Source of the DNA: an uncultured Rhodospirillales bacterium
Lineage (GTDB): Bacteria > Pseudomonadota > Alphaproteobacteria > UBA9219 > RGZA01
Reading direction: 5' to 3'
Assembly (NCBI GenBank): GCA_964568585.1
Contig: CAZMQI010000002.1
Span: forward strand, 9,237 to 73,236
DNA length: 64,000 nt
Below are positions 1 through 826 of the stretch, in pieces; positions within the stretch are counted from its first letter, which is position 1; each line of letters opens with the position of its first letter. The notes under the pieces are model-generated. The model was not told where the DNA came from, did no database searches, and saw only the letters and a program-made list of their open reading frames with translations. The translations under genes were made by a program, and so were the position numbers.

Positions 1-146
1 AACCGCAAGCAGCGCCATCCCCGCAACTCGTCTATCAAAATCAACCGCGCCCTGCTTATGCCCAGCAACGTCCGCCGGAAGCAACACCTGATGCGCCGCA
101 TCCGCCACGACCCTTACATATCAACCGTATTGGCAGTCAGGCATAA
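1..146 (+). CDS. 3' end of a gene entering from upstream; Pro/Gln-rich C-terminal tail carrying the LHINR tail motif
   Basis: Phase-3 frame is open from the window edge to TAA at 144-146. It translates ...PQLVYQNQPRPAYAQQRPPEATPDAPHPPRPLHINRIGSQA*. LHINR (114-128) matches the tail motif of five other proteins in this window. The next gene starts 11 nt downstream. Confidence 0.5.
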   Translation, partial: PQAAPSPQLVYQNQPRPAYAQQRPPEATPDAPHPPRPLHINRIGSQA

Positions 147-157
147 TCGGATAAGTC

Positions 158-826
158 ATGGCACGCGAAGACGGATATTCAGAACTTAAGAGACAGCGGA
201 TGACGCCAGCTGCGTTCCTGCAAATGCGCCAATATGAACGCGAGACATCCACCACAGGCCACTGGTCTGGATTTATCATGCCATTACCGCGCGGAACATA
301 CCGCGTCGGTAATCGTGGATACGGTGTACACAACCATCCACGCGGTGGTCATGCACAAATGCACAACGGTCATGATATGCAAGCACCGGAAGGCACGCCC
401 ATTCTGGCACCCCAAGATGGCACCATCAGCGATGTCTTGCCCTATCATGGCAGCGCGGGAAATTTTTTGAAGATGAAAGGCCAAACGCATGGCTTTGGCT
501 TTATGCATTTATCGCGATTTGCTCCGGGCATTCGTGAAGGTACGCGCGTCAAGCAGGGACAAATCATCGGCTTTGTGGGATCGACCGGCGAAAGCTCAGG
601 GCCGCATTTGCATTATGAAGTCTATTCGCTGGCGAATGGCAAACCCATGGATCCAAAACCCGTAGCGATGAGCGGGTCGCGTACCATTACCACGGCAGAT
701 GCACGGTCAATCACCCAAGGACACATCACCACAGCAGCATTATTTGCACCGACACCTGCAACGCCAGCCGCGACAGCACCTGTACCAGCGCCGACAGCTG
801 CACTGCGTATCCACACACAGACTTAG
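158..826 (+). CDS. M23/LytM-family metallopeptidase without signal peptide, Pro/Ala-rich tail ending ALRIHTQT
   Basis: M23 zinc motifs are present: HxxxD (HNGHD) and HxH (SSGPHLHYEV). The N-terminus MAREDGYSELKRQR has no hydrophobic leader. The C-terminus is ...PTPATPAATAPVPAPTAALRIHTQT*, with the motif at 803-817. Confidence 0.8.
   Translation: MAREDGYSELKRQRMTPAAFLQMRQYERETSTTGHWSGFIMPLPRGTYRVGNRGYGVHNHPRGGHAQMHNGHDMQAPEGTPILAPQDGTISDVLPYHGSAGNFLKMKGQTHGFGFMHLSRFAPGIREGTRVKQGQIIGFVGSTGESSGPHLHYEVYSLANGKPMDPKPVAMSGSRTITTADARSITQGHITTAALFAPTPATPAATAPVPAPTAALRIHTQT

Follow-up and report, generated by a model that had tools for sequence, protein, structure and literature searches.

We analysed a stretch of 64,000 nucleotides from an uncultured Rhodospirillales bacterium (contig CAZMQI010000002.1, positions 9,237 to 73,236 of the forward strand), here called the window, in which six proteins encoded at three loci share a short peptide motif near their C-termini. 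We refer to these carriers as A, the M23 peptidase, D, E1, E2 and E3 (Table 1). The first locus has the gene order cupredoxin/FTR1, A, M23, gyrB; the second leuB, E3, E2, E1, alpha-amylase, lepA; and the third NUDIX, a gene of 154 amino acids, D, and three Ala/Pro-rich genes. The housekeeping synteny of all three is kept in every genome examined. An earlier first-pass annotation, made from the sequence alone, had proposed that six proteins at three loci carry the element near the C-terminus, and all six indeed carry it.

Six motif-bearing proteins at three loci

The strict pattern used for our counts is [LFWV]-x-I-[NHR]-[RT], which generalises to [W/L/F]-x-[I/M/V]-[N/H/Q/R]-[R/T] and, with the preceding residue, to the extended consensus [G/R/P]-[W>L,F]-x-[I/M/V]-[N/H/Q/R]-[R/T]. 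The consensus of 66 instances reads [P/T]-x-x-[G/R/A]-W(40)/L(15)/F(11)-[V/R]-[I/M]-[N/H/R]-R-[Q/H/I]-[N/S/T]; these were picked by regular expression, and a few are probably chance matches, such as LHLTA inside the SGNH domain. Trp is the usual first residue in relatives, while the genome of the window often has Leu or Phe instead. A search of the literature returned no description of the motif or of the metagenome-assembled genomes (MAGs) that carry it, and a profile of 32 motif 15-mers matched a single designed repeat protein among PDB sequences.

The motif sits in Pro/Gln/Thr-rich segments that flank the catalytic modules. Five of the six carriers (A, D, E1, E2 and E3) have two copies by a regular-expression scan of all six frames, and most hold two or three. 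Every carrier and orthologue keeps a C-proximal copy, no more than about 25 residues from the end of the protein; the distance to the stop varies from 2 to 22 residues. Further copies are found almost at the start of A (residues 7-11) and, in E1, in the linker region between its two catalytic domains (residues 200-204 and 246-250). The proposal of a signal at the extreme C-terminus, made in the first-pass annotation, is therefore borne out only in part: the C-proximal copy is universal, but the N-terminal and internal copies and the variable stop distance do not agree with a strictly terminal position.

Table 1. Positions of the motif-bearing genes, their internal features and the associated promoter elements in the window
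Feature	Position	Strand	Description
Gene A, 3' end	1..146	+	full gene of 312 amino acids, Logan contig L001:9051-9989
M23 metallo-endopeptidase	158..826	+	222 amino acids; isoelectric point (pI) 9.9; Pfam PF01551
OmpA-family peptidoglycan-binding lipoprotein, possible seventh carrier	4671..5192	+	lipobox LSLSAC; polar tail ...NRHNWQINK at the stop
Promoter of the gene after D (46601-47218)	47279..47346	-	TTAACCAT 47339-47346; full TTAA-N7-TTAA 47279-47293
Protein D	47520..48638	-	372 amino acids; ends ...PLQIHRISN
D, LQIHR	47532..47546	-	
D, WRINT	47604..47618	-	
D, glycine-zipper helix	47763..47861	-	
D promoter	48712..48719	-	TTAACCAC, one mismatch to a CtrA half-site; same element at the same offset in L173
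Protein E1	57249..58580	-	443 amino acids; ends ...RFVIHTQSPPRGTA
E1, FVIHT	57276..57290	-	
E1, LVNNS	57831..57845	-	degenerate copy
E1, LRINR	57969..57983	-	
E1, helix	58032..58124	-	
Protein E2	58594..59433	-	279 amino acids; phage tail lysozyme PF18013 (Phage_lysozyme2), 69 bits
E2, FTIHR	58636..58650	-	
E2, LRINR	58798..58812	-	
E2, amphipathic helix	58858..58950	-	
Protein E3	59602..60462	-	286 amino acids; uncharacterised N-domain
E3, LTIRR	59671..59685	-	
E3, WVINR	59860..59874	-	
E3, glycine-zipper helix	59878..59979	-	
E3 promoter	60541..60598	-	ATTAACCAT 60591-60598 and inverted TGGTTAA 60541-60547, about 50 bp apart, then a TATAAT-like box

Gene A enters the window in frame 3 (nucleotides 3-146) and ends ...HPPRPLHINRIGSQA or ...QQRPPEATPDAPHPPRPLHINRIGSQA, i.e. 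...PLHINRIGSQA, with the stop codon at 144-146. The translation agrees with the motif reported earlier at 114-128, where LHINR is encoded by TTA CAT ATC AAC CGT and lies five residues before the end of the protein. Extending the sequence upstream, as the first-pass annotation had suggested, recovered the full gene and a second copy of the motif, WRIYR, which is the N-terminal copy beyond the window edge. Protein A contains the LAS/M15-type signature S-x-H-x-x-G-x-A-x-D followed by H-x-H, invariant in six orthologues. Because no Pfam, NCBIfam or PHROG family matched and a moderate-confidence model had no Foldseek match, we only infer from these signatures that A is a putative LAS-type peptidase.

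The M23 gene starts with an ATG at 158 after a spacer of 11 nucleotides. Its stop-to-stop frame of 223 codons has no space for a signal peptide upstream, which, with the coordinates and the PF01551 match, agrees with the earlier description of a leaderless peptidase bearing the motif at 803-817. The Peptidase_M23 match scores 84.7 bits against a cutoff of 28.7, and the zinc ligands and catalytic motifs HNGHD and HLH are present. The nearest NCBIfam families are ShyA, ShyC and MepM, and the PHROG matches are endolysin and tape-measure families. The Pro/Ala/Thr-rich tail ends ...APTAALRIHTQT or ...APVPAPTAALRIHTQT, in which LRIHT precedes the last residues (...LRIHTQT). We found no close relative of this peptidase among GTDB representatives.

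E1 consists of a GH104 lytic transglycosylase of the phage-lambda type, a glycine-zipper helix, LRINR, a Pro-rich linker, LVNNS, an SGNH/GDSL esterase and FVIHT. The GH104 label is taken from source names, and E1 also has a PHROG endolysin match. Foldseek matched E1 to the lambda lysozyme 3d3d (E=1.7e-5, 44% identity) and to many SGNH esterases, including the peptidoglycan O-acetyl enzymes PatB and OatA-C. The degenerate third copy, just ahead of the second catalytic domain, reads GLVNNS in the window and PWVNNR in relatives in the orthologue alignment, and E1 orthologues keep the motif at all three positions. In P0014 and P0015 another N-domain, without a match in a relaxed Pfam search of either protein, replaces GH104, while the helix, motif, SGNH domain and motif are kept. 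By sequence comparison, catalytic heads are thus swapped while the tail module is kept.

The remaining carriers are less uniform in their heads. E2 has PHROG matches to tape-measure families. The N-domain of E3 is elsewhere fused to tape-measure, Gp5-OB, Amidase_3 and SLT modules, and PDB sequence and relaxed Pfam searches with E3 gave no match. No catalytic family was assigned to D by Pfam, including a relaxed search, or by a PDB sequence search. The C-terminal sequences given earlier for D and E1 agree with our translations. The tails of E3 and D, each made up of helix and motif, can be aligned with one another, and tails of the E3 family finish in an R-P-R-P-type sequence. In all orthologues, E2 and E3 also share an N-terminal leader of about 25 residues, [G/N]-D-P-x-x-N-R-[N/R]..., ahead of unrelated catalytic domains; this leader is a second constant element beside the variable head.

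Several traits are common to the carriers. The six proteins have a pI of 9.7-10.7, and their last 60 residues are Arg-containing with a pI of 10-11.4. None of the six has a Sec or Tat signal peptide or a transmembrane segment (stop-to-stop frames without space upstream; best 12-residue hydropathy in the first approximately 40 residues at most 0.93; no 19-residue window above 1.45). Phage-type wall-hydrolase domains are recognised in three of them (M23; GH104 and SGNH; phage tail lysozyme), and in four a helix, amphipathic or of the glycine-zipper type, separates the head from the tail. None of the carrier tails had a Pfam-A match at E<=0.01, and Pfam gave no matches to folded wall-binding repeats (CW_binding_1, GW, LysM, SH3b, PG_binding_1) in the six proteins. 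AlphaFold2 models were made for two carriers, A and E1. The predicted local distance difference test score (pLDDT) is below 50 for residues 1-44 and 250-312 of A, and about 30 for the linker (183-255) and tail (416-443) of E1. Every motif-bearing segment of these two proteins has a pLDDT below 50, and the motifs are not packed on the domains, so that disorder is predicted for these parts of both models.

The motif is maintained at the protein level

The six proteins contain ten strict matches, compared with 0.35 expected from shuffles of the whole proteins and 0.057 from shuffles of the tails and linkers only (529 residues); none of 20000 shuffles of either kind reached ten. The strict motif lies within the last 18 residues of five proteins, against an expectation of 0.016. 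The 43 other genes of the window have 2 strict matches in 16070 residues (Poisson P about 1e-13), and matches in a Pro/Gln-rich context outside the six proteins are confined, in the window, to one 78-codon frame that was not called as a gene. Codons for Leu, Ile and Arg vary among the ten copies, and the only DNA repeat beneath them is one stretch of 32 nucleotides with 75% identity. Hence the copies are kept alike at the level of the protein sequence.

Conservation in relatives supports the same conclusion. The motif is retained by orthologues in at least five related genomes and is kept down to 40-50% identity, while the surrounding tails differ in length and sequence. Six orthologues of A, with identities as low as 40%, have retained the two copies, joined by spacers of varying length and sequence; the N-terminal copies read WRIYR, WRMYR, WIIRT or WVIRR, and the C-terminal copies LHINR, LQINR, WMMRR, WRMQR, WYITT or WQIRS. 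Orthologues of the M23 peptidase end ...TSTVWQMHRHT (L085) and ...STVWQMHRHANA (L187), i.e. ...VWQMHRHANA. In D the copies are GWRINA and GGWQVRP in L173, and GWRINA and FVMHRHTT, at the stop, in L174; the catalytic part of D is only 30% identical to that of the L174 orthologue, yet the motif ends both. Orthologues of E2, E3 and D in four further genomes keep motif copies, and distant E3 relatives have GWRINL, IWKINL and GWKINY. The first-pass annotation had raised the case of orthologues that lose the motif and keep the tail; what we found is the opposite.

It might be objected that the tails are biased in composition (Pro/Gln/Thr/Ala-rich) and that the motif spans no more than five to eight residues, so that low-complexity coincidence, or a DNA repeat spread by gene conversion, would account for the copies. 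Such an origin is next to impossible: composition-matched shuffles never attain the observed count, the copies differ in codons over a sole short and imperfect repeat, and orthologues keep the motif though its flanks diverge. The chance explanation is refuted, in agreement with the earlier preference for a recognition element over low-complexity similarity, and the motif is real, selected at the protein level and restricted to these proteins.

Members of the carrier family occur only in a few MAGs of uncultured Alphaproteobacteria from enhanced biological phosphorus removal (EBPR) sludge and other sources, in which LepA is at most 79% identical to that of named genera (assorted Rhodospirillales/Acetobacterales-type genomes). 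A narrower alignment of the tails (A3) found two GTDB species representatives, both as E3 orthologues. Neither this alignment nor E2 had a match in viral contigs. Immunity-type genes (small genes with signal peptides) do not stand beside the carriers at any of the three loci or at the orthologous loci. Secretion genes are missing from the 10 kb on either side of each locus in four genomes, and no parts of a type IV secretion system (T4SS) are encoded in approximately 200 kb of clade sequence.

Elements of the TTAA-N7-TTAA or TTAACCAT type occur in five promoters, those of A, E3, E2, D and the gene following D, and are fixed in orthologous promoters while their flanks diverge. The elements of the E3 promoter, which are like CtrA half-sites, are kept in five genomes. 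Those of the gene following D are invariant in three genomes and are the best-conserved CtrA-like sites. Window-wide counts are at chance level (2 TTAA-N7-TTAA and 2 TTAACCAT), but of these four exact sites three belong to the promoters named above. The elements resemble CtrA boxes, which is a likeness and not a demonstration. The window also encodes a CcrM-like N6/N4 DNA methyltransferase with a RAMA domain (39620-40807, + strand), which has only an imperfect CtrA-like site, TTAACAGCCTGATTT, upstream.

Possible roles of the motif in the envelope

A possible seventh carrier is the OmpA-family lipoprotein (Table 1), which has a classical lipobox and is therefore exported by the Sec/Lol route. 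Its orthologues end ...RHKWYLNR and ...RHKWQLNK, so that this kind of motif occurs in three genomes; a metagenome scan for further orthologues gave nothing closer than distant OmpA proteins. Among 361 open reading frames (ORFs) of at least 90 amino acids in the approximately 200 kb of clade sequence, only the hydrolases, the lipoprotein and one FTR1 have a W-type motif within their last 14 residues. Other Sec-dependent envelope proteins of the window (a Csd3-like M23 peptidase, a DsbA-like protein and a DUF4852 protein) lack the motif. The tail of the lipoprotein is a lead and not a proof; were the motif genuine there, its partner would likely be located outside the cytoplasm. The FTR1 permease beside gene A (L085:8500-9312) has the C-terminus ...ILWRLQKNPAPTKA, which resembles the tail of the E1 type (W-x-Φ-x-[KR]...P..T.A at the stop). 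This match is probably a chance positive-inside sequence, as it directly follows the last transmembrane helix.

We tentatively favour the reading that the motif is a lineage-specific, multivalent docking peptide for one envelope partner, and consider it plausible while falling somewhat short of probable. The motif would form a short extended strand with the W, I/M and R side chains on one face, and would bind one common envelope partner by strand addition. Docking would tether the different catalytic heads to the wall layer, with the same logic of variable head and constant binder as in modular lysins, where a peptide motif would here replace the folded binding domain. The enzymes would exit the cytoplasm otherwise than by Sec or Tat, through a holin-type lesion, lysis of a subpopulation, or a further secretion system, and the motif itself is probably not the export signal. 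Binding by strand addition, the single shared partner, action outside the cytoplasm and the export route are all steps that we infer. Docking is favoured over a terminal export signal because copies occur at N-terminal, internal and C-proximal positions, and more generally because there are several copies, their distance to the stop is variable, and the motif probably also occurs on a Sec/Lol lipoprotein.

Several points weigh against docking. We identified no partner for the peptide. The view that the motif is not an export signal depends mainly on the OmpA-like lipoprotein, whose match, with K in place of R or L in place of I, may be coincidental (window-wide probability about 0.07); its conservation carries little weight because the orthologues from the three genomes stand close to one another. 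The usual ligands of short motifs are folded proteins; peptidoglycan or a lipid may also be bound directly. The universal C-proximal copy and the basic, Arg-containing C-termini also fit type IV-like secretion signals. Finally, a profile of the tail module (A2: helix and motifs, E3 and D tails) returned only P0132 from 5.8 billion proteins, probably owing to composition filtering, so that breadth cannot be assessed from this search.

It is possible, but doubtful, that W-x-[I/M]-[N/H]-R is the address tag of an undescribed route, either non-Sec export or outer-membrane translocation, which would deploy CtrA-timed, phage-derived hydrolases with interchangeable heads; the OmpA-type lipoprotein would then use the same receptor or be mimicked at it. 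If docking is correct, five residues that dock at least six different wall enzymes would be a new and very compact targeting module, and would provide a handle on how signal-less hydrolases reach the peptidoglycan in this lineage. The motif could be used to list the full substrate set of the clade and to fish for the receptor. Head swapping and the shared CtrA-like elements suggest a coordinated programme of wall degradation linked to the cell cycle or to a gene transfer agent (GTA). Depending on the partner, such a programme would bear on autolysis, GTA release, fratricide or predation.

An export role had been implied by the first-pass annotation, and the C-proximal copy, in a basic and probably disordered tail, could be an export or delivery signal read in the cytoplasm by a non-Sec system, such as a type IV coupling protein, on antibacterial or predatory effectors. 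No carrier has a Sec or Tat signal though the substrates are extracytoplasmic, a copy lies near the C-terminus of every carrier and orthologue, and the tails are strongly basic, with RPRP-type ends in E3. The combination of variable head and constant C-tail is also that of the XVIPCD effectors of the Xanthomonadales killing T4SS (X-Tfes). These are antibacterial wall hydrolases, likewise signal-less (lysozyme-like, M23, lytic transglycosylase) with swappable N-heads and a conserved C-region with a Gln-rich tail. However, XVIPCD is a folded domain of approximately 120 residues read by VirD4, whereas here a motif of 5-8 residues, in segments with predicted disorder, occurs in several copies, also N-terminally, in an alphaproteobacterial host with no adjacent immunity lipoproteins or T4SS genes seen. 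The disordered substrate signals of Agrobacterium VirB/D4 resemble the carrier tails, with their predicted disorder, in being positively charged C-termini with several Arg residues on proteins without a Sec signal, but they are strictly C-terminal, lack a conserved hydrophobic W-x-I core and are not on wall hydrolases. The additional N-terminal and linker copies, the same kind of motif on a Sec/Lol lipoprotein, the tails without a Pfam match, the lack of immunity genes beside the carriers and of secretion genes in the surveyed surroundings, and the syntenic loci in a core housekeeping context rather than in islands all argue against this role, which is not established and which we consider unlikely.

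The motif might instead be an import epitope as in colicins. Enzymes released by lysis would attack their neighbours from the outside and thread a probably disordered cationic tail through an outer-membrane protein; the W-motif would then capture, by strand addition, a periplasmic Tol- or Ton-type protein by mimicking the tail of the cell's own OmpA/Pal-like lipoprotein. Signal-less killing domains would need to reach only the periplasm, and the tails hold several short epitopes, with disorder predicted for those of A and E1. A peptidoglycan-associated lipoprotein has the Trp-centred motif too, a parallel to colicin E9, which mimics Pal at TolB. The window also encodes a GTA holin/endolysin pair, and the CtrA-like boxes could time release. 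Colicin and pyocin translocation domains (TolB box, TonB box, OmpF-binding sites), including those of the wall-targeting toxins colicin M and pesticin, share with the carriers the missing signal peptide, action in the periplasm, which is presumed for the carriers, and short epitopes in a disordered region, among them a Trp-containing epitope that mimics the contact of the peptidoglycan-associated lipoprotein with its periplasmic partner. However, the TonB box (D/E-T-x-x-V-x-A) and TolB box (DGSGW) are absent here, the motif W-[V/R]-[I/M]-[N/H]-R is preceded by G/R/P and not by Thr with an acidic residue, and its copies are mainly C-terminal. The loci contain no receptor-binding domain, immunity gene or lysis gene, bacteriocin genes do not typically show the core chromosomal synteny that these loci keep throughout the clade, and mimicry of the cell's own lipoprotein would hit kin without evident protection. 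Altogether, import seems to us improbable.

Still less can be said for a control element, by which a periplasmic TPR/Sel1 adaptor (as NlpI or LbcA) or a tail-specific protease would limit the activity or lifetime of the hydrolases by proteolysis or scaffolding. In E. coli and P. aeruginosa, hydrolases are controlled through C-terminal tails and through peptides bound by adaptors. The carriers comprise wall hydrolases and one peptidoglycan-anchoring lipoprotein, and the window encodes a membrane protein with Sel1 repeats and PG_binding_1. But the Sel1 protein is not directly linked to the motif, a PDZ-type tail reader needs no N-terminal or internal copies, and the missing signal peptides would be left unexplained, which makes this role very improbable. 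A cargo-loading peptide of the encapsulin type, which has the similar hydrophobic spacing L-x-I-x-x-I, was set aside: we saw no gene for an encapsulin, and it is implausible that wall hydrolases would be its cargo.

The wall-binding repeats of lysins and autolysins (choline-binding, GW, LysM, SH3b, PG_binding_1) likewise combine variable heads, phage-derived hydrolases included, with a constant, repeated, aromatic-containing targeting element. They are, however, folded units of 20-80 residues detectable by Pfam, whereas here the element is a peptide of a few residues in Pro-rich linkers. None of these four known systems (XVIPCD effectors, VirB/D4 substrates, colicins and lysin repeats) fits as a family, because the tails have no Pfam match, the boxes are absent, immunity, receptor and lysis genes are absent, and the unit is a short peptide. 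The motif is best regarded as a putative targeting module on modular wall hydrolases that consists of a short peptide and not of a folded repeat.

Neighbouring genes and the gene transfer agent cluster

A complete RcGTA-type cluster occupies 10027-25771 on the minus strand and contains terminase, portal, S78 protease, capsid, connectors, tail, DUF2460, BR0599 hub, NlpC/P60, a Rcc01698-type protein of 1137 amino acids, and DUF2793. Directly after it are a Phage_lysozyme endolysin (10428-10874) and GTA_holin_3TM (10027-10428). The GTA lysis genes of Rhodobacter capsulatus are located elsewhere in its genome. Neither the endolysin nor the NlpC/P60 peptidase of the cluster carries the motif. We rejected the view that the cluster is without a tape-measure gene, since 16166-16798 has the tape-measure C-terminal signature ...PYLVGERGPELF...; this gene is placed after the hub gene and not before the distal-tail gene. 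An ORF on the opposite strand within the cluster (16775-17245) is lipoprotein-like and contains a TTAA-N7-TTAA site (16941-16955).

A bitopic protein with Sel1 repeats and PG_binding_1 (35344-36981, + strand) has a transmembrane segment at residues 86-104 and a Gln-rich cytoplasmic N-terminus, a layout like that of PodJ. Its gene is divergent from that of the Sec-dependent Csd3-like M23 peptidase (33558-34976, - strand), and neither protein has the motif. We considered the Sel1 protein as a signal-less carrier and rejected it because of this internal transmembrane segment and the missing motif.

An alpha-amylase-family gene without a signal peptide (55613-57205, - strand) lies directly downstream of the last E-type hydrolase in each lineage examined, and persists even in the distant lineage L179, which has only an E3-like gene left. 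Downstream of D (45457-47218, - strand; L173:20627-21235; L174:20128-21117) are the three consecutive Ala/Pro-rich proteins, all without signal peptides. A PG_binding_1-like segment and an Arg-rich N-terminus are found in at least two of them, and the trio has a tail motif of its own, ...DFD[VL]PE... in the window and ...GEVGTTELP... in L174. Tandem paralogues at 50118-50990 and 51097-51867 (- strand) contain the zinc motifs of beta-carbonic anhydrases, C-x-D-x-R and H-x-x-C, but fall under the Pfam cutoff. This carbonic-anhydrase-like pair adjoins the D locus in all genomes examined.

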